Source: Promethearchaeota archaeon
GTDB taxonomy: Archaea > Asgardarchaeota > Lokiarchaeia > Sigyniarchaeales > SOKP01
Direction of reading: 5' to 3'
DNA length: 64,000 bases
NCBI GenBank assembly: GCA_019058245.1
Contig: JAHPZJ010000030.1
Span: 155,294 to 219,293, forward strand
The position numbers and the translations under genes are program-made. How positions within the stretch are numbered: position 1 is the first letter of the stretch; each line of letters begins with the position of its first letter. This document shows, in pieces, positions 17,979-57,861 of the stretch. A model generated the notes under the pieces. It made no database searches and was not told the DNA's origin. It saw nothing but the letters and a program-made list of their open reading frames with translations.

Positions 17979-18470
17979 ATGGCTCAATCAGAAGATGATA
18001 AAAATTTCTGTTGTCCCAAGTGCGGTAAAATTGGTACCATTACCTTTTTAAAAGCAAATGGGGATAAAATTATGGTAAAACAAAAATGTTCACAACATGG
18101 AATAAAAAGTTTTAAGGTGCCTCTATTACAAAAAGATAGTTTTATTCCTCATTTTCGCAAAGGAGTTTTTCGTTGCCCTGAATGTGGACAAAATACTATA
18201 GTGGAAAGCGCCAAAATGTCAGGACCTTGGATGATTGTAAAAAGTGCTTGTCCAACTCATGGTAATAATTTACCAGAACAAAGAATTTGGAGTACCTTAT
18301 ATGTTGATATTTCTAACTATACAGATATATTCAAGAAAGAAATTTCAAAAAAACAAACAGACCAACCCCAACCTACTCTTAGTGATGAAAAAAAGTTTTG
18401 TCCTAATTGCGGAACACCACTAAAAGAAGGTGGTGAATTTTGTGATACATGCGGGGCTAAAATCGTTTAG
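17979..18470 (+). CDS. multi zinc-ribbon protein (two CxxC...CxxHG modules plus a C-terminal double CxxC ribbon)
   Basis: 163-aa ORF. The modules are CPKCGKIGTITFLKANGDKIMVKQKCSQHG and CPECGQNTIVESAKMSGPWMIVKSACPTHG, followed by CPNCGTPLKEGGEFCDTCGAKI. Confidence 0.7.
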   Translation: MAQSEDDKNFCCPKCGKIGTITFLKANGDKIMVKQKCSQHGIKSFKVPLLQKDSFIPHFRKGVFRCPECGQNTIVESAKMSGPWMIVKSACPTHGNNLPEQRIWSTLYVDISNYTDIFKKEISKKQTDQPQPTLSDEKKFCPNCGTPLKEGGEFCDTCGAKIV

Positions 18471-18580: not shown

Positions 18581-21496
18581 TTAAAAAAACGCATCCATTT
18601 TTTTAATACCTTTTATCTCTTCATATGTTATACCTAGAGCATCTAAAACCTGTTCTAACGCTGAAATTAGAAGATCTTTGTATTTTTTAGTATCTATATC
18701 TTGGAGTTTAGCTAAGTCAATAGCTTTTGTTCCAATTGATCCCTTACTTTTAATAAAACTTATGGTTTCTCCTTTTTGAAATTCTTTTCCAGTTGCCGCT
18801 TTTAATTCTAATGCTGCTCTTACATGTTGAGGAATAACTTTTGTATAACTCTTAAGATCTTTTTGCAAAGCAATGTTTATAACATAATCTTCTAACTTGA
18901 AAGCATCTGGTTTTCCTATCTTTTTTAGATTGTTCCTTACAATTTCTTTAATCCTATCTTTAGCTTTCAAAAATTCATCATTAGTGGTGATCTGCTTCAA
19001 TATTTCGATCATTTCACTAAAAGCTTTTTTAATAAAGTTAGGTGTGTTTTTCTTCTTAGCAACAAGACCTTTTATATCTACATATTTAGTATTTTTATAA
19101 ATTCCAATATAGTTTTTCTTTCTATCAGAAAGTGCAAGAAACTGATAGGTCTTTTCCTCTTCTAAGTCAAGATCTAATTCTTTTCTGCTCCATTCTGATA
19201 TTATTTTCATCTGATCATTAGTTGGATTTAAAAGAAAAACGCTATCAGTATCCCCATAGAGAACTTTCACACCTATATCTTCCGACTTCTTAATGGTTTG
19301 TTTTATTGAATATTGACCTATTGAAGTAGTACTTTCTGCAACAGGAAGACAAAATAGAGGAAAATTCTGAGAGCCAAAAACACCATAACTTCCATTAATA
19401 AAAACTTTAAGAGCTTGCTGAATCGTATGATAATAACTTCTTTGTTTTTCTGTTAAATTTTTATCGGTTGATTTGGGTTTAAAATATTTAACTCTGATAT
19501 CTCTAAAAAAGCCTACAACATAAGCAAAGATTCCCATTTTTTTAGTACATATATGATAAGGGGTTCCTTTTACAAGATTATCTTCATCTTCTTTATGAGG
19601 ACATAATACTGTTTCGTATGATAAGTTATATTCTTTGATAATAGAAGGGTAAAGTGAAGCAAAATCCATCACTACGACGTCAAAATGAATTCCAGGAACA
19701 GGTGGGATAACATAAGCCCCTGCAAATGTTTTTCCTTCAATAACCGCTTTTGAATAGCCTCCAGTTTTTAATTCAGCGATTTCTGATCTACGAGGTATTA
19801 AATAATTTTTTCTTCTATGTTCAAAATAAAAAATATTTTGAATCCATGTTGATATTTGGCGCCTTACTGTTTCATGAATAGGCATTTTGGTAATTCGACA
19901 TAATAATACAATTAAATTCCAGACAAGTGAGTTATTAAATTTTGTTAATTCTAATGTAAGTATTGAATCTTTTAAATTATACCACGTTAGAACATCATAT
20001 TCCATTTCATGTATTTCTTCTTCATGCGCATATTTCATTTCTCCCAATAATGCATCGCTAATCGCGTTTAATGAACTACTTTCATATGCACCTCCAAAAG
20101 CATATCCAGAAATACTTCGATTAAAGAAAAAATTAAATAGGTCAATATGGATTCCCTTTCTCAAGTCACAATCAGATCTTGATAAGAACCCAAAACCTCT
20201 CTTAATATGGATAGGATTTAAATCTTTATCAATTTTCAATTTATTTGCTCTATGAAACATATAAGTTAGATCAAAATTATCTCCGTTGAAGGTAATAACT
20301 ACAGGATATTCCCATAATAAACGAAAAGTCTCTATTAATAATTCTTTTTCACTTTTAAAGAAAACTAATTTGGCGTCTGACGGAAATCTCTTATGTAGTC
20401 CATGAAAAAGGAATCCTTCTCTTTCTAAAACATATACTAATTTTAATCCATCTGATGCTACAAAAGAAATGCTAATAATTGCTTGTTTTGCCTGACGAGG
20501 ATCTGGGATAACAAAATCTTCTGATCCTAAATTTACTTCGATATCCATAGCTATCCGTTTTACATCTGGAATCGGTGTAAGAAATATATCTAAAAACTTT
20601 TCCGAAAACTCTTGAAGTTCTGACGATTCATTTTTGAACAGATTCCGTAATTCTTTTGCCATATTTTTAGATTCTTCTGAATCCTCTTCAAAACTCAACT
20701 TTTTGATTTGACCACCTTCAATAGAATATATTAATCCAGGAATTAGTTGTCTATCGAAAATATAGTTCAAATGATATCTAATATCTGCTTCCCATGCTTT
20801 TTTATTGTTTTTACTTAAAATATTTCTAATATTTGTACCAGAACCACCAATATCTGACGGTGTTTTACCATATATTTTTGTCATCGATATTTCTGTATCT
20901 TTTAGCAGATCAATTCTCTTAATTTCTTCAAATCTAGTAAAACCTTCATAATCTGTTAATTCTATAATATTCTGTAAATCTGCTATTGATTCCTTACTTA
21001 AGCAATAAGGTTCATGATCAGTAGTATCAATCCATATTCTTATATCATCAGTTTTAAGATCATAAAATTTACAGTATGCTTTATTTTGACTTCCATCATA
21101 ATCAACATCAAGCAATATACCTCTTTCCATATCTTCAACGATTTCTCCTTTTTCAATAAGATAACGAATATATTTTGAAGAAAAATTTTCTCTTAAAACT
21201 TTTGGTAATTTAATATTTCCTTCTTTTAAGCCAAATTGTTTGTCATTCCCTTCAAAAAATAAGTTTGAAGGAATCTCCTCTGAAATAGGCTCTAATTGAG
21301 GCTTTGATTCTTTAGCTTTATGTTCTTTTATAGCTTTCGGTTTATCTTTTGGGCTTTTTTCTGGAGTTTTATCAATTTTTGGTTTCTTTTCTGATTCTGA
21401 CTTCTTTTTTTTCTTTTTTGTATCTTTATCATCAACAAATGAAAATAATGATGTTTGGGATTTATCATCGGGTTTCTTCTTTTTTGAAGGTGGCAT
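18581..21496 (-). CDS. polB: family B DNA polymerase with a Lys-rich N-terminal extension
   Basis: 971-aa ORF. Exo I is AMDIEV, Exo II is FNGDNFDLTY and Exo III is YNLKDSILTLEL. Pol A is MDFASLYPSII, Pol B is KVFINGSYGVFG and Pol C is VLYGDTDSVF. The motifs are contiguous, so no intein is present. Confidence 0.9.
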   Translation of the reverse strand: MPPSKKKKPDDKSQTSLFSFVDDKDTKKKKKKSESEKKPKIDKTPEKSPKDKPKAIKEHKAKESKPQLEPISEEIPSNLFFEGNDKQFGLKEGNIKLPKVLRENFSSKYIRYLIEKGEIVEDMERGILLDVDYDGSQNKAYCKFYDLKTDDIRIWIDTTDHEPYCLSKESIADLQNIIELTDYEGFTRFEEIKRIDLLKDTEISMTKIYGKTPSDIGGSGTNIRNILSKNNKKAWEADIRYHLNYIFDRQLIPGLIYSIEGGQIKKLSFEEDSEESKNMAKELRNLFKNESSELQEFSEKFLDIFLTPIPDVKRIAMDIEVNLGSEDFVIPDPRQAKQAIISISFVASDGLKLVYVLEREGFLFHGLHKRFPSDAKLVFFKSEKELLIETFRLLWEYPVVITFNGDNFDLTYMFHRANKLKIDKDLNPIHIKRGFGFLSRSDCDLRKGIHIDLFNFFFNRSISGYAFGGAYESSSLNAISDALLGEMKYAHEEEIHEMEYDVLTWYNLKDSILTLELTKFNNSLVWNLIVLLCRITKMPIHETVRRQISTWIQNIFYFEHRRKNYLIPRRSEIAELKTGGYSKAVIEGKTFAGAYVIPPVPGIHFDVVVMDFASLYPSIIKEYNLSYETVLCPHKEDEDNLVKGTPYHICTKKMGIFAYVVGFFRDIRVKYFKPKSTDKNLTEKQRSYYHTIQQALKVFINGSYGVFGSQNFPLFCLPVAESTTSIGQYSIKQTIKKSEDIGVKVLYGDTDSVFLLNPTNDQMKIISEWSRKELDLDLEEEKTYQFLALSDRKKNYIGIYKNTKYVDIKGLVAKKKNTPNFIKKAFSEMIEILKQITTNDEFLKAKDRIKEIVRNNLKKIGKPDAFKLEDYVINIALQKDLKSYTKVIPQHVRAALELKAATGKEFQKGETISFIKSKGSIGTKAIDLAKLQDIDTKKYKDLLISALEQVLDALGITYEEIKGIKKMDAFF

Positions 21497-21662
21497 AACA
21501 AACCAATAAAGTATAATATTTTAATTTCTAATATAAATAATTATTGTCTTATTTATTTTAATACTCTCTAATCATTCTTTAATATTTAATTTGAAACTCT
21601 GGAGTAAAGATACTCTGCAAAGAAAGAAGTTCTAGTAATTAGATAAATATAAAAATTCGATA

Positions 21663-22010: not shown

Positions 22011-22167
22011 TCAGAAACCTTATTTACACTAGAATTATTAATATGTTAATTAATCAACAAAAAGATAAATAACCTTTTAATTATTACGATTGGTTATTTC
22101 ACTGGTCTAAAACCACAAAATTAAAAATTTATAATAGTTTCATATAAAATAATAATTATTAAAAAAT

Positions 22168-22271
22168 GCCTCCGTGGCTTAGTGGTAGAGCAGCAGACAG
22201 GGGTTCATTATTCAACCAACCCTGCATTTGTAATCTGCCGGTCGTGGGTTCAAGTCCCACCGGGGGCTCCA
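22168..22271 (+). tRNA. tRNA-Thr (anticodon TGT at 22229-22231) with a ~29-nt intron (about 22198-22226) and encoded CCA
   Basis: Manual cloverleaf: acceptor GCCTCCG/CGGGGGC, D arm GCTT-AGTGGTA-GAGC. Anticodon stem GCAGA (22193-97)/TCTGC (22234-38), variable CGGTC, T arm GTGGG-TTCAAGT-CCCAC, discriminator T, then CCA. The insert between the stem and the loop contains its own helix CAGGG/CCCTG. Either possible splice register gives anticodon TGT. Confidence 0.85.
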
Positions 22272-22386
22272 TTATTAGTTATTCAATTATAATTCGTCCT
22301 ATTCTCGATTTACTAATTATTAATAGAACTGCACCTCTACCTATTCAGAAATAAAAATAAAAAAATAGTTTTTGGTTTGATTTATA

Positions 22387-41843: not shown

Positions 41844-44800
41844 ATGAACTCCGAAAATAAAAATTATTCACAAGAAAAAATTAAAAAGGCTACGGAATTT
41901 CTTCAGAAGTCATGGTGGTTTTGTTTTTACTTAGTTATTGCTCCATTGATTATTGCTTTTTTAATAATAGTTATTTTTATTCAATCTGGAGTAAATATTT
42001 ATATCTCATTAGCATTTTCTGTTTTAAGTTTTATTTTTACACTACTTTTCTTTTTTAAAGTATATGATAAATACAGAAGAAAGCCATTTTTTCTAAATAA
42101 AGAGAATAACCCTACAGCCAGAATTCATAGTTTGTTCTTAATTTCTATATTTTCTTTGATAATAACACCAATATTTTACTTAATTTCACTTATGAATATC
42201 CCATTTACTTTACTTCCTCTAATTAGTTATGCTATTCTTTATAATATCATCTATTATTATTATTATCTTCAACCATTAGATTATTTCAACTTAGAAGAGA
42301 AGGAGTTTAAACATACTGAGAATATCAAGTTAATGTTTATACAACCGTATAACTTTATAATATTTCTTAATTATTTAATCCATATCATTTTCTTAGGAAT
42401 TACAGCATCTACAGAATTTTCTTGGCTTTTCAGTTTAATTTCAGATATAGCAGTCTATATACTCACTTTAGTATCAACTAAAGATCAAATTAGGAAGATT
42501 AAGGAACTTATTGCTGAGAATAAGTCAATTGTAAAAGATTTAATTGTTTTTAAAAAGAAATTTGTAGTTTGTATAGTTAATCTTCTTTTTATCTTATTAA
42601 TTCAAATGCCTTTTGTCAGTATCATTATGTTCAGTCTTAGAGGTGTTCTATATTCAAGTTTAGAACTTATAAGTTATGCATTTTTAACAGTAATTTTCAT
42701 CTTGTTCTATTTTAAATCTAGGTACTATATTAGTGTGTACTATAACACAAGACTTAAATTGTATATAGTATCTGATAATATCAATATTTCAAAAGAAAGT
42801 ACGTTTATAGAATATTTCAAGTATCAAAAACATAATTCTTATTTATCCGGAGTGTTAATTCTATTAATTACTATATTCTCTTTTTTAATTGAAATTCCTC
42901 TTTTAAATGTAATTATTCTTCCTTTCATTTTTATTCTTCTTTATTATGAACAAAAATCAGATCTCTGTCCTAAAAAATATAGCAGATTTGTAGCTTTATT
43001 AAATTCAATTTCAATATTGGCTTCTATCGCTTTTGGTTTAATACCATTGATATCTGAGATGCCCTTATTAAACTTTTTAATTTTTTGTCTTTCATTGTAT
43101 TTTGTATTACAAATTTTTGCTAGATATAAATATTTCATTAAGGATGATATTCTTTTATACCAAAATCTACTTGCTATAGCAAGTTTTATATTATTATTTT
43201 ACTCATTCTTTCCGATAGCTATTATCGAATATACAACCTTTACATCAAACCCAATAATAATTCTTATTTCAAATATACTTTTACATTCATTGATTATTTT
43301 AGTAACCTTCTTAATTTCATTATATATTCTAGGGGTTCGATATTTTTATGCTAAGACCCCGAAATCATTTAAGACCTATATTATCATAATAAGTTTTTTA
43401 ATTGAACTTGTTATTTTTGCACTCATCAATTTTAGGAACTTTTTAGTATTGGGATTTATCAATTTTTTATATTCACTTTGCATCTCATCAATTTTATTCC
43501 CAATTGTTTTCATAGTTTTCCTTTTTGTAAATTATAGTCTAAATGCATTCAAATTAGAATATTTCTTAACCTTATGTTATTATATTTTTTGGATTTTTAT
43601 TGTTGATTTCTTCATTTCTCTGCTGATTATCTCTTTACTCAATATTTACATCATTGTTCTAATATTAGATTGTTTAATTTCATCCATTTTTTATTATTTT
43701 ATATTGAAATTTGGTATGGAATTAGAAAAAATAAATGAATCCAAATTTAATACAAATAATAAAATCAATTCCTATTTAATTGGTATTGAGCTTTTATCAT
43801 TATTTTTTACTATTTTTTTTATAGCTTTTCAATCTATCTCCTTAGCAGAAAATTTAATCTATTCATTATATTTATCATTACTAATCGTCGGTGGATTAGT
43901 CAATCTATTTTCAAAAATAGAAATTTTTTCGGAAGACCTCATTCTTAGAATAAATGCATTTATTCTATTATATAGCTCATTAATAGCTTTTTACTTCATT
44001 TTATTACTTACTTTTAATACAACTTATGTTTATATAGTTCCTCTACTGGTCTTTTCTACAATTTTTTACTTACCGCTTTTATTTTTGAAGAAGAAAAGCA
44101 TATTCAAAAACTTTATATCTAAGTTATTAAAAGTAAATAGTCTGCTATTTTCAGCAACATTATCCTTAATTCCCATTATTATAGGTTTGGAAATGTTCAA
44201 TTTAGGATTATATTTTGATTTAATTTTTTTAATATTTTCTGTAATCAATTTTAGCTTATATATTGTATTCGCTCTTCTTGGTATTTACTATTTCTTATTG
44301 AAGAAAATCAAGGTTGATGAAAATCGAGTTAATCTGATTCTTAAATTACATATATTAATAGCAGTAATTATTGGAATTACAACGATATTTTATTATCCAT
44401 TTTTTCTATTAACCGGGACATTCTATTGCATAGTATTACCATTGATTTTTATGTTCTGCTTCTTTTATATACCTCTTTTTTACTCTTACAAGAAACAGTT
44501 GTTTAATGTTAAACTAGTTAAATTAGAAATAGTTTTAATTACTATAGCTTTAACAGGTTTATTTACTTCAATACCTTCAATAGTTAGTTTAGATTTAATA
44601 AATAAAAGTTTGATATTTTATTCTAAGGTTTTACCTGTAAATATTATAAACTTTTCCTTCTACATTTTCTTTATTTTTTTATTAATTCTTAGTAGTCTAT
44701 TTAAAAAATTAGAATTAAAAAGCAAATTTATTTTAAATTTAGGTAGATTACAATTCTTTACCATATTTTGTATTTCTATTACTACACTATTTTTCTACCC

Positions 44801-47800
44801 ATTTTCATTGTTAAGTGGATTTTTTTATAAAATCCTTATTTCTTTCATTGCTTTATTGTCTTCTTGGTTTTTTATTTTCTATTATGCTTATAGAAAAGAA
44901 TATTTCAATCTAGTATTAGTAAGACTATTAACAATCTATAATTTTACTGTATTATCGTGCTTAATTATTTCGTTACCATTTATAATTGGATTAGAAGTAT
45001 TTGGATTCGCAGCTAATTTCATCCTAATAATAACCCTAACACTATTAATTCTATTTGTTTTTCTTAATATTTTTGAGATTATCGCAAATAAAATTAAGTT
45101 AAAAGAAAGATATATAAAATATTCTAAATTGCTTAAACCAATTCTCTTTTTTCTATTATCATTATTTTTGTCTTATTATATATCTACGATTTTTATTATT
45201 AGACTTACACTAACTCCTATAACTTTTCTAGTGTTAAGTTGTAGCTTTTTAGTTTTTTTCTTATTAAGTATGTATACCCTGGAACTTACATTTTCCTATG
45301 ATCCCAAATTATTGACATTAAAAAAGTATAAAGATATTATCATTTATGGAATCATTCTTTCATTATCATCAATTTTTACTTTTTTAAGCATATCAACAAA
45401 TATTCTTTCATCTTTTTTTCTAACTTCAATAATATTTAATTCATCTATTATAATTGGTGTTTTTACTTCATTATTTCTTTTATTTTTGATTCTGGGTGAC
45501 AATTTAATAGAATTGAAATTACCGCAGGTAAAAATAATCTGCGAATTAATTGCATGGGTAATTATAAAGGTAATATTATGCATTTTAACATTTTTTCTTA
45601 TTGACGTTTTTGCGTATCAATTCTTTATTGTAAATAAAATATTGCTAGTTTCATTAATTTTTACCGTTCTTACACCCTTAAGTCTTCATATATTAAAAAA
45701 TCTGAGTTTAGTATCATCTAAAAATAAATTACTAATAAAAAAACTAACTGAAATTGTATTTATTATTTCTTTATTAGGAATTTATACTGAAATTTCTTAC
45801 AATTTATTAAATTTAATACCACTATTTTATCAGAACTCACTTTTGAAAATAGTATCTCTCACTATTAATCTGATTTTAATTTTATATTATTTTTCTATAA
45901 AGTATAATAGAGTACTAGAAGAACATTCTTCACTCAATATTTACAGCTTTTATTTAACATCCTTCTTATTATTTTTCAGCTTTCTTTATTTTAATACTAA
46001 TCTTTCAGTTTTCCTTATATTACTATCGTATGTATTAATTCTTTCTAAGAGGAGCATAATTTCTATTTTTCGGTTTTTATCATATTTCTTACTAAGTTAT
46101 TATACTTTTACTACGATTCTAGTAATTATAAATTTCTATGGGGTTACAATAGCGTTTAATTTAACAAATCTAAGTATATTCATCAATCTATATCTCTTAA
46201 CGACAATTTTCGTTTTGGTTTTCTCTATTATTCTAAATATAAAGAAAAATAATACCCAAGAAAAATTTACATTATATTCTCTAATTTCTATACTCTCTTA
46301 TGTTTCTCTCATGAACTTTACAAATATTTTATCAATTTATAACATTACAATTTCACTTTTCATATTCTTATTCTTTATGGGAATTTACTTTCATCATCAA
46401 AAAGATGAACGTTATAAATGGTTTATTAAGCCTTGTTTAATTTTGTTTATCTTTGACTTTATTAGCTTTCTATCATATTCATGGTTCTTTAATAATCAGA
46501 TTTATGATACTTACAATCCAATTTTAACTTTCACTCTTACTCTTAGTATAACAGGTTTTGGATTCGTTTTATTGTATAATGAGGCTCCAAGAAAATTTCG
46601 AAAGAAATTCTTCTATATTATACTAGCATCAATAGTTATTGCTTTTCCAATCTTTATCTATTTTTTAATGATTGCGTCTTTATCAATGCCATTATTATCT
46701 ATAGTTCCATTAATAGTCGCAATAGATTTTGGTGTTTTTCTTTTTTATCTTTGTATTGCAATATATCACTGGAGGATTTCATGGGCAATTTGGAAATCTG
46801 GATGGTATGTGTGGAATATTCTACCTTTTGTTAACTTCTTTATTATATATCAAAGTTTTACTGGAATTGATGTATTCACTGACTCATTGCAATTTGGATT
46901 AATTCAAGTAGAAGGTTCATTAATAATTTCAATGATAATATGTTCTTTATTTTTCTTGCCAGTATTGTATACAAAAATTAAAAAATATTTTTTTTATATA
47001 ATATTTATTATATGGGGTGAAAGTCTATTTTTACTCTATTGGGTTAACTCAAATTTATTTGTCAGTGATCTAGTATTAAGAAATTTATCTTTTGTTTTAT
47101 TTTCAGTTATACTATTAATGCCTTTATTCGCGGGATTTAAATATTGGAAAATGGTGTCGATATTTTGGCTTTTATTAACTATAATTAATAGTTTATTTTT
47201 ATTGGGCTATTTAGTTTCTATTGGGGTCAATTTAGAAATGGTAATTTCAATTGACATTTTAGTTTTTGGGTTATTTTTTATTGTTTATTCATTTTTTCCA
47301 AATATAAGATCCTATGGAGTTATATTAATAAGTGCCTATCTTATTACACTTTCAGGTATTTTCTCCACAGTTTTATTCATTTTTTATTTATTATTATTAG
47401 ATCCCATATTTTCTGTGAACATTAGTTTTATCATAGTTGGTTTAAGTCTTTTTTCCTCAAAATATTTAAAATTATCGAATAGAATTATAGATCATAGTCT
47501 CTCTTGGGTATTAATATTCAACTTAGCATGGTTAACTTTCAATACTTTCAATCTATTTCCAGGATTTGTTGTGTTTGCATTCTCTTTAGCACTAACTGTT
47601 TTTGGATTTTCATTTTTCATCTTTAATCACTACAAAATGAAAATGCCTATTAGAATTATAATTCCAAGTTCAATTATCACGATTGGGGCTTCTCTTTCAG
47701 TCACCTCTTTTATATCTTTAATTTTTAAAGCATCCCCCGGGATATTAATCTCTACGTTTTCTTCAGTATTTATAGTATTCTTATATTTTTTAATTAAAGA

Positions 47801-56427: not shown

Positions 56428-57861
56428 ATGTCTGAACCATCATTAGAAAATTTGTTAAGGGATGCCAGAGTTGATCTGGTATTATCTAGAATAGAGAGTA
56501 ATCCATCTGTAATTAGTGAAGTTATTAAATATTTGGATAGTTCAATAAGATCTATAAAATTCAATTCAATTAACGTTTTAGGGCAAGTAGGAGACAAATC
56601 CAAAACCGCTGTTCCTAAGTTAATAAAACTTTTAGAGGATGAGGATTGGAGTATTTGTCGAGAAACTGTACGTTCTTTGGGAAATATTGGAGAGCTTGCA
56701 AAAGATGCAATACCCAATCTATCGAAATTGCTTAATAGTAAAGAAATATCTATTCGCAAAGAAGCCGCAATAAGTCTTGGTAAAATAGGAAATCCAACTA
56801 AAGATTCAATTTCAGGTTTAGTTAAGGCATGTAATGATGATAGTGAGGAAGTTCGAACTGAAGCAGCAAGAAGCATTGGAGAACTAGGGCCAGAAGCTCA
56901 AGGATCTATACCACAATTAATGAAGTGTCTTAAAGATGCAGATTGGGCGGTTAGAACAGCTTCTGCTCAATCAATTAGTAAGATTGGAAAAGGATCTACA
57001 ATAGCCATTCCTCAACTGATTCAATCATTAGAAGACAAAGATTGGAGAGTACAATACAGAGTAATAAATACATTGGCGGATATTGGTCGAGAAGCTGTTC
57101 AAAGCCTTTTAGAAGTATTAAACCATAAGAAAAAAAATGTCAGAATTGGAGCAATTGATGCTTTAAGTGAAATGAAAATAAGTGATCCAGAAGTTATAAA
57201 TAGGTTAGCTATTCTATTAAAAGATAAAAAAGAAGCTGTACGAGGAAAAGCCGCATATGCTCTTCGAAATATTGGAAAAGATAGCATTCCAGCCTTAGTT
57301 AAAGCACTTGATACAGCTAATAAAAAAATGCAGATCGTAATTCTTACAGCAATAGGAGGAATTGGTAAGGATGCAGCAGAGGTAATCCCCACTATTATAA
57401 ATTTTCTAAAGCATCCTGAACAAGATAATGAACTTCCACTCTCACAGTCGTTCTTTGGAAGAATAGGACAAGCATTTTCAACATTTTTTACTGATCCAAC
57501 CTCAACAAAAAGTAAAATTCGTGTTGAAGCAGCAAGAACTCTCGGTAGAATTGGACCAGAATCGGAAAATGTTATAAAAGCCCTTGAAATAGCATTAAGA
57601 GATCCAAAGAAGAATGTTCGTCGGGAAGCCGCTCTTGCGTTAGGTAAATTTGGATCATTATCAAAAATGAGTATTCCATCTTTGATCAATGCATTAAATG
57701 ATAGAAGTCCAGATGTAAGATGGAGAATTTCTGAAGCGTTGGGTAAGATAGGTGAAAAAACAACAGAAGTTGTTTCAATCCTAAATGAATTAATACATGA
57801 TAAATGTGATTATGTATGTGAATCAGCTTATAATGCTCTTGATGAATTAACTGGTGAATAA
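56428..57861 (+). CDS. HEAT-repeat (PBS-lyase-type) protein, about a dozen ~31-aa repeats
   Basis: 477-aa ORF starting 11 nt after the livF stop. The repeating pattern is D(x)W(x)VR(x)xAAxSLGxIGxxAxxAIPxLxxxLxD, for example DEDWSICRETVRSLGNIGELAKDAIPNL, DADWAVRTASAQSISKIG and SPDVRWRISEALGKIG. Confidence 0.8.
   Translation: MSEPSLENLLRDARVDLVLSRIESNPSVISEVIKYLDSSIRSIKFNSINVLGQVGDKSKTAVPKLIKLLEDEDWSICRETVRSLGNIGELAKDAIPNLSKLLNSKEISIRKEAAISLGKIGNPTKDSISGLVKACNDDSEEVRTEAARSIGELGPEAQGSIPQLMKCLKDADWAVRTASAQSISKIGKGSTIAIPQLIQSLEDKDWRVQYRVINTLADIGREAVQSLLEVLNHKKKNVRIGAIDALSEMKISDPEVINRLAILLKDKKEAVRGKAAYALRNIGKDSIPALVKALDTANKKMQIVILTAIGGIGKDAAEVIPTIINFLKHPEQDNELPLSQSFFGRIGQAFSTFFTDPTSTKSKIRVEAARTLGRIGPESENVIKALEIALRDPKKNVRREAALALGKFGSLSKMSIPSLINALNDRSPDVRWRISEALGKIGEKTTEVVSILNELIHDKCDYVCESAYNALDELTGE

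Follow-up and report, generated by a model that had tools for sequence, protein, structure and literature searches.

Conserved PIP-type motifs on both flexible ends of a Lokiarchaeial PolB1 DNA polymerase

The stretch of DNA under study, a 64,000-nucleotide segment of contig JAHPZJ010000030.1 (assembly GCA_019058245.1) that is called the window below, comes from a Promethearchaeota archaeon and has a GC content of about 29%. On its reverse strand lies polB1, the gene for a family-B replicative DNA polymerase whose closest homologs carry Promethearchaeota or Lokiarchaeia labels. Specifically, the encoded protein consists of a folded core framed by two tails that are predicted to be flexible, each of which bears a short motif of the PCNA-interacting peptide (PIP) type. 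Comparison with related polymerases shows that both motifs are conserved and that this two-ended pattern is ancestral to the PolB1 family; both motifs probably dock onto the sliding clamp PCNA. The locus is laid out as follows.

21531..21537 (-): TATA-like string TTTATAT, 35-41 nucleotides 5' of the polB1 ATG, a tentative promoter element
18581..21496 (-): polB1 gene, an intein-free open reading frame (ORF) of 971 amino acids with an ATG start, encoding a family-B replicative DNA polymerase of the PolB1/Dpo1 type
21494..21496 (-): start codon ATG, assigned from the upstream in-frame stop, the position of the next start (codon 123) and the equivalent starts of relatives
21473..21484 (-): lysine cluster KKKK, residues 5-8, ahead of the N-terminal motif, with a column identity of 0.8-0.9 across orthologs
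21434..21457 (-): N-terminal PIP-type motif QTSLFSFV, residues 14-21, with a column identity above 0.9 and a predicted local distance difference test score (pLDDT) below 50
21284..21433 (-): variable, disordered linker rich in K, E and P, residues 22-71, pLDDT below 50
18608..21283 (-): folded core, residues 72-963, comprising the N-terminal domain, 3'-5' exonuclease, palm, fingers and thumb, with a pLDDT of 79-98 from residue 72
18584..18607 (-): C-terminal PIP-type motif IKKMDAFF without Q, residues 964-971, conserved, pLDDT below 50

The start of the gene deserves particular attention, as it decides whether the N-terminal motif exists as protein. The stop codon occupies 18581-18583, an in-frame TAA (21523-21521) stands 8 codons 5' of the ATG, and the first ATG, GTG or TTG after codon 1 is codon 123, which falls within the conserved core. 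In relatives, independent gene calls and raw translations of the genomes alike start at the equivalent position. Across 11 related genomes, the eight codons of the N-terminal motif show 35 synonymous and 11 non-synonymous differences, and the Q, S3, L4, S6 and F7 of the motif are invariant, though their codons vary. Comparison at the nucleotide level thereby shows an N-terminal extension that is translated and motif codons that are under purifying selection. The TTTATAT string upstream is consistent with this start and is no proof of it, such strings being common at 29% GC. A 57-amino-acid ORF in another frame (21328-21501, reverse strand) overlaps the lysine-rich 5' part of polB1 and is an artefact of A-rich codons; codon-level conservation favours the polB1 frame over it.

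These observations bear directly on the most sceptical reading of the locus, namely that the extension is untranslated and the true start lies downstream, or that the motifs are chance matches in AT-rich, low-complexity sequence. The low GC content, with its abundance of lysine codons, would speak for such a view, as would a few database entries that begin downstream (P0018, P0072, P0110), but these short entries are fragments or carry miscalled starts. With no further start codon ahead of codon 123 and purifying selection acting on the motif codons, a downstream start is ruled out, and the concern voiced in the initial annotation, that the extension might not be translated, falls away with it. 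In addition, residues 75-133 are conserved and predicted to be folded, so a downstream start would remove conserved protein (residues 75-122). As for chance, a relaxed PIP pattern occurs in the ORFs of the window at a rate of 0.3 per 1000 amino acids, and only 2 of 52 window ORFs end in [LIM]xx[FYW][FYWL]. What decides against chance is the conservation of the motifs among homologs, described below. Hardly any credence is left for this reading.

The identity of the polymerase itself is well defined. The gene codes for an intact replicative polymerase of the PolB1 (Dpo1) type in a Lokiarchaeia (Promethearchaeia) genome, an assignment that follows from domain models, family models, sequence and structural matches and invariant catalytic residues. 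Specifically, Pfam finds DNA_pol_B (PF00136, 4e-46, residues 539-930) and DNA_pol_B_exo1 (PF03104, 5.7e-23, residues 233-459), and the NCBIfam equivalog NF004417, 'DNA-directed DNA polymerase I', scores 952 bits at a cut-off of 780, with the Pol II and PolB3-type NCBIfam models reaching no more than 127 bits on the same protein. The top sequence match in the PDB is 1S5J, PolB1 of Sulfolobus solfataricus (E=1.9e-183); all other matches, including PolB3-type archaeal enzymes and eukaryotic Pol alpha and Pol delta, have E-values of 7.8e-37 or weaker. An AlphaFold2 model built from a 100-sequence alignment (mean pLDDT 86.8, predicted template modelling score 0.83) again has 1S5J as its top Foldseek match (TM 0.91, E=2.9e-63). 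In the same alignment, the following residues are invariant or nearly so: D318 and E320 of Exo I; N404, G405, D406, F408 and D409 of Exo II; Y506 and D510 of Exo III; D611, S614, L615, Y616 and P617 of motif A; K697, N701, Y704 and G705 of motif B; Y747, G748, D749, T750, D751 and S752 of motif C; and K793, K794, N795 and Y796 of the KKxY motif. The intact exonuclease and polymerase residues set the protein apart from many PolB2 and bear out its initial description as a complete family-B polymerase, which can now be placed in a clade. Many orthologs (among them P0030, P0068, P0078, P0094, P0105 and P0116) are 1311-1403 amino acids long and contain intein/homing-endonuclease domains (PF14528, PF14890).

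Both terminal motifs lie exactly where they were initially placed, and their conservation was followed through the 120 best homologs, which are 70-100% identical to the query. The pattern Q[TK]S[LI]x[ST][FY]x occurs 5-30 residues from the N terminus in 114 of these 120 proteins, and the homologs that lack a terminal motif are fragments, products of miscalled starts or members of a small variant subgroup. Measured against the canonical PIP box, Qxx[LIM]xx[FY][FY], Q14, L17 and F20 fit positions 1, 4 and 7, and all three are invariant or nearly so among orthologs. By its sequence, QTSLFSFV is a degenerate PIP-like motif that also fits the QxxLF type of Sulfolobus PolB1. In that enzyme, nine residues at the N terminus, with Gln4 and Leu7-Phe8 among them, are reported to bind PCNA2 (PMC1636371). 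That report also removes the premise, adopted at the outset, that archaeal PolB enzymes usually carry a single C-terminal PIP, at least where PolB1 is concerned. A relation to PIP degrons finds no support in the sequence: degrons of the CRL4-Cdt2 type combine TD at positions 5-6 with a basic residue at +4, and the motif has F-S and D at these places. A search of PDB chains with the 40-residue N-terminal peptide, aimed at PCNA-bound peptides, returned only an irrelevant weak match to a designed lectin (E=0.19) and is uninformative for so short a motif.

The surroundings of the N-terminal motif are less uniform. Column identity is about 0.4-0.9 over residues 1-8 (MPPSKKKK), falls to 0.2-0.6 over residues 22-74 and is high again from about residue 75, where a block extending to residue 133 is strongly conserved in Loki-type orthologs. 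The 14 residues ahead of the motif Q hold 4-8 K or R across orthologs, and PolB1 of Lokiarchaeum ossiferum also has a lysine cluster, in the form PKKKKK. In 113 orthologs, the Q and the core block DVDYDG lie 92-130 residues apart (median 114), and the net charge of this linker ranges from -17 to +13 with a median of +1, being zero or acidic in 41 of the 113. In the AlphaFold2 model, residues 1-71 are flexible (pLDDT below 50). The linker is therefore a polyampholyte, and the conserved basic feature is the lysine cluster before the motif, not a tail after it. The initial annotation had pictured a poly-lysine tail following the PIP; orthologs keep both motifs (114 of 120 in each case) and do not keep such a tail. 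The enrichment of the extension in Lys, Pro, Glu and Ser, estimated there at about half, stands, and these residues make up slightly over half of residues 1-100 (K 28%, P 11%, S 10%, E 10%).

The charge of the tail also informs a further alternative, in which it would chiefly be a non-specific DNA-binding or charge module, or an early form of a nuclear localization signal (NLS), with the PIP likeness of QTSLFSFV being secondary. The lysine cluster at residues 5-8 is indeed conserved, and PPxKKKK matches the pattern of a classical basic NLS. Archaeal ribosomal proteins have, moreover, been described to contain NLS-type motifs with nucleic-acid-binding activity (bioRxiv 10.1101/671966). Yet it is the hydrophobic motif, not charge, that is the best-conserved element of the tail, and the net charge of the linker spans the range given above. 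TACK relatives keep the motif with no more than one or two basic residues beside it, and the tails of some Thermoproteales PolB1 are even acidic (PMC5418573). Because linker charge is not conserved while the hydrophobic motif is, a principal role in DNA binding or as an NLS appears quite improbable.

At the other end of the protein, K[KR][MLI]D[AS][FY][FL] terminates 114 of the 120 homologs, with KKMDAFF itself in 99 and close variants in 15 more. M967, F970 and F971 fit the aliphatic position 4 and the aromatic positions 7-8 of the PIP box, on a flexible end: residues 966-971 have a pLDDT below 50 in the AlphaFold2 model, with one helical turn at 967-970. MDAFF aligns to IDSFF of Sulfolobus PolB1, and some distant PolB1 carry fully canonical C-terminal forms with Q (QVSIEQFF, QSGLDEFF, QSTLTDFF). 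Because of these canonical forms, the Q-less Loki-type ending is best read, on sequence grounds, as a derived version of the standard C-terminal PIP. Four orthologs that are 74-84% identical (P0021, P0023, P0056, P0121) differ over their last ~100 residues and end in ...SVQKTLF or ...SQKKLF, not GIKKMDAFF; this subgroup has exchanged its C-terminal module for one that likewise closes with a clamp-motif-like QxxLF. Taken together, the alignments and the structure model support both terminal motifs as conserved short linear motifs on tails that are predicted to be flexible.

How far this arrangement extends beyond the Loki-type enzymes was assessed with two wider sets, one of 150 representatives from clustering at 50% identity and one of 80 loci from named species genomes, which were translated straight from DNA so that gene callers were bypassed. 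Lineage names of the divergent representatives are the unverified titles of the genome records. A consensus drawn from 100 diverse PolB1 has MxxxxxxLxxF at its start and KLDxFF at its end. Of 45 named loci that are not of Loki type (at most 51% identical to the query), 42 contain [LIM]xx[FYW] in the open frame upstream of the core, versus 23 expected from shuffled sequences, and 14 contain the full Q-form, versus 1.4 expected. Examples of the N-terminal motif, which also come from Jord-labelled genomes, are listed by lineage.

Bathyarchaeia: MKRRLDDFL, MSSLDQYM, PQKSLFDFS
Desulfurococcales: MGHQLRLDDFF
Thermoprotei: KKLTLDRFL
Methanomethylicota: MAITLDKFI
Sifarchaeum: ETTLDQFF
Thorarchaeota: NQSTLDDFF
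Hodarchaeota: SGRLDSFF
Heimdallarchaeota: MGLEDFF
Odinarchaeia: GKLESFF
Lokiarchaeum ossiferum: PKKKKKTPPKGFTNLNQFM, without Q

The C-terminal pattern [LM][DE]x[FW][FLM] likewise recurs in PolB1 of Bathyarchaeia, Desulfurococcales and Thermoprotei and of genomes with Odin, Thor, Heimdall, Hod and Sif labels. By sequence comparison, the two-ended motif pattern is therefore an ancestral PolB1 trait that is shared with TACK archaea and is neither Asgard-specific nor derived from eukaryotes. The proposal of a eukaryote-like N-terminal tail is hard to maintain when the motif recurs in PolB1 of Bathyarchaeia, Desulfurococcales, Thermoprotei and Methanomethylicota. The Loki type is set apart by its lysine cluster, by a longer polyampholyte linker and by PIP-length spacing. 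Close homologs that are 73-92% identical bear Thor, Odin, Hermod, Hod, Heimdall and Loki labels, and such phylum-level names of metagenome-assembled genomes are evidently unreliable; being mutually inconsistent, they were left out of the distribution across Asgard classes. Previous work has described the N-terminal parts of PolB1 as divergent in length and sequence (PMC5911459, PMC5418573). No description of these motifs in Lokiarchaeial PolB1 specifically turned up in the literature library that was searched, and papers on primase hand-off (PMC8782868) and PolB diversity (PMC7544198) contained nothing on terminal motifs of PolB1. A PIP peptide ascribed to Pyrococcus RFC-L (KQATLFDFL) was likewise absent from this library and carries no weight in the argument.

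These findings favour, with a probability of roughly 0.7, a dual-tether mechanism in which PCNA receives each motif in its hydrophobic PIP pocket. Homology to the motif tested in Sulfolobus, together with the type of the motifs, makes PCNA the likely partner, and confidence is higher for the N-terminal motif, given its homology to a tested one, than for the C-terminal motif. While DNA is being synthesised, the C-terminal motif would hold the thumb side of the enzyme against the clamp, in the manner of other archaeal PolBs. The N-terminal motif sits on a disordered leash of ~50 residues, long enough to bridge the N-terminal domain and the face of the clamp, and could capture a second PCNA subunit. 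This N-terminal contact could recruit the polymerase, or could hold the tether once the C-terminal contact releases, for example in proofreading or polymerase exchange, and the KKKK cluster would probably add affinity to the clamp by electrostatics. We infer both the simultaneous occupation of two sites and the role of the lysines. Positive charge in the flanks is reported to modulate PIP affinity across four orders of magnitude, and disordered regions to house most PCNA-binding motifs (PMC6881253); PCNA of Asgard archaea is reported to be mostly single-copy (PMC12680538).

Several points weigh against dual tethering. The aromatic residue of position 8 is replaced by V21 in the N-terminal motif, where orthologs have V, I, A, G, L, T or M; Lokiarchaeum ossiferum lacks the Q (FTNLNQFM); and the examples from Nitrosopumilales and Thermofilaceae show no obvious motif, which makes it dispensable in some lineages. 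The C-terminal motif has I964 in place of the Q of position 1. In addition, Sulfolobus acidocaldarius with a C-terminal myc-His tag on PolB1 grows normally (PMC5418573), so that a free C-terminal end is not essential, at least in this species. Finally, a PIP-like C terminus need not be specific for PCNA, by analogy with the polymerase PolD, whose Q-less peptide, cPIP, binds primase with a dissociation constant of 4 uM and PCNA with one of 49 uM (PMC7101311).

This last observation leads to the main rival, in which one motif, likeliest IKKMDAFF, mainly or additionally binds primase or a small accessory subunit at the thumb, and the N-terminal motif alone tethers PCNA. Beyond the preference of cPIP for primase, it is in keeping with the binding of PBP2 to the thumb domain of PolB1 in Sulfolobus (PMC5418573), and the Sulfolobus motif that is experimentally tied to PCNA2 is the N-terminal one. 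Against it, the C-terminal motif occupies the site of the PCNA-binding PIP in other archaeal PolBs (3A2F), the canonical Q-forms of distant PolB1 stand at this very position, and PBP1 and PBP2 are undetected beyond some crenarchaeal orders and absent from several lineages that have PolB1 (PMC5418573). We regard such a division of labour as possible, if rather unlikely.

The results extend an N-terminal clamp-binding motif known from Sulfolobus to an ancestral feature of the whole PolB1 family, Asgard members included, that is paired with a near-universal C-terminal motif. This bears on how one polymerase engages a homotrimeric clamp in archaeal relatives of eukaryotes. In practical terms, the motifs are useful for annotating PolB1 start codons and for designing constructs, as truncation of either tail would lose a likely PCNA contact. 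The finding by itself says nothing new on eukaryogenesis. A bolder idea is that Asgard PolB1, in which the ancestral motif gained a P-x-x-KKKK patch and a polyampholyte leash and which would engage a homotrimer at two sites, represents an archaeal forerunner of eukaryotic PIP-plus-NLS modules; if so, the basic flank would first have served affinity for clamp or DNA and later have been co-opted for nuclear import. We consider this a long shot.

The genomic neighbourhood adds nothing to these considerations. Pfam scans of 40 neighbouring ORFs of the window found metabolic, transport and unknown genes only, and no PCNA, RFC, Fen1, ligase or PBP1/2 among them; polB1 stands alone. Converging on its 3' end is the gene for a 163-amino-acid protein with several zinc-ribbon motifs (17979-18470, forward strand). 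PBP1 of Sulfolobus is a small zinc-finger protein (PMC5418573), and nothing was found that links the neighbour at 17979-18470 to it. On the other side, Rfam reports a tRNA at 22168-22268 (forward strand; 53.6 bits), which at 101 nucleotides against a 71-position model is probably an intron-containing archaeal tRNA; ARAGORN found no tRNA across the whole window. This tRNA overlaps a spurious 62-amino-acid ORF (22166-22354). Further away, a 2866-amino-acid ORF (41844-50444, forward strand) has no Pfam family at E<=1e-3 and sits in the part of the window with the lowest GC content (22-25%) and a strongly negative AT skew; it may encode a giant lineage-specific or surface protein. A 477-amino-acid protein (56428-57861, forward strand) consists almost entirely of HEAT/Armadillo-type repeats and adjoins an operon for a branched-chain amino-acid ABC transporter.

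Among known systems, PolB1/Dpo1 of Sulfolobus solfataricus (1S5J) is the closest, being of the same family, and its Gln4 and Leu7-Phe8 share the Q-x-x-L-F register with Q14 and L17-F18 of the Lokiarchaeial protein. The differences lie in the surroundings: the Sulfolobus motif begins at residue 4, without a lysine cluster and with a shorter linker, whereas the Loki-type motif follows KKKK and also has the longer PIP spacing Qxx[L]xxF. Furthermore, the clamp of Sulfolobus is a heterotrimer, and its PolB1 has the subunits PBP1 and PBP2.

For the C-terminal motif, the instructive counterpart is PolB of Pyrococcus furiosus, a PolB3-type enzyme that shares the overall fold and carries its clamp-binding peptide on a short flexible tail after the thumb. 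PolB3-type archaeal polymerases have a Q-containing C-terminal motif. They belong to another PolB clade (E about 1e-26 to 1e-33) and, unlike the Lokiarchaeial PolB1, are not known to have an N-terminal PIP. The crystal entry of the Pyrococcus PolB-PCNA complex, 3A2F, is among the PDB matches of the protein. Modelling by others treats the tail at the C terminus of Sulfolobus PolB1 as the counterpart of the Pyrococcus PIP in this structure.

PolD offers the precedent for a polymerase with two such peptides. Its DP2 subunit has two PIPs, iPIP and the Q-less cPIP KKRVISLEEFFS, the latter crystallised in the PCNA pocket, and a two-step mechanism of recruitment followed by stabilisation has been proposed (PMC7101311). 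Like the PolB1 described here, it is an archaeal replicative polymerase with a Q-less PIP-type peptide ([L]-E-x-F-F in PolD) on a variable linker; unlike it, PolD has an unrelated catalytic fold, both PIPs are C-terminal, and cPIP also binds primase.

In eukaryotes, DNA ligase I, UNG2 and MSH6 have a PIP-type motif near the extreme N terminus, within a disordered lysine-rich region. These proteins are unrelated to PolB1, where the conserved basic patch comes ahead of the motif and the segment behind it is basic in some orthologs but not in others. The ligase I-type arrangement suggested by the initial annotation is thus not what the locus encodes, there being no conserved basic segment after the motif and the host protein being PolB1. 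The likeness is an analogy, convergent or generic to short motifs, and not a sign of common ancestry, because the motif is inherited within PolB1, TACK lineages included. Pol epsilon was not among the PDB sequence matches of the protein at E<=1e-10, where Pol alpha and Pol delta were, and we know of no N-terminal PIP in Pol epsilon. In yeast, the PIP QTSLTKFF of Pol2 follows just after the catalytic module, a position comparable to that of the C-terminal motif of PolB1. A Hodarchaeal PolB1 has been proposed as a precursor of Pol epsilon that predates the last eukaryotic common ancestor (PMC12680538).

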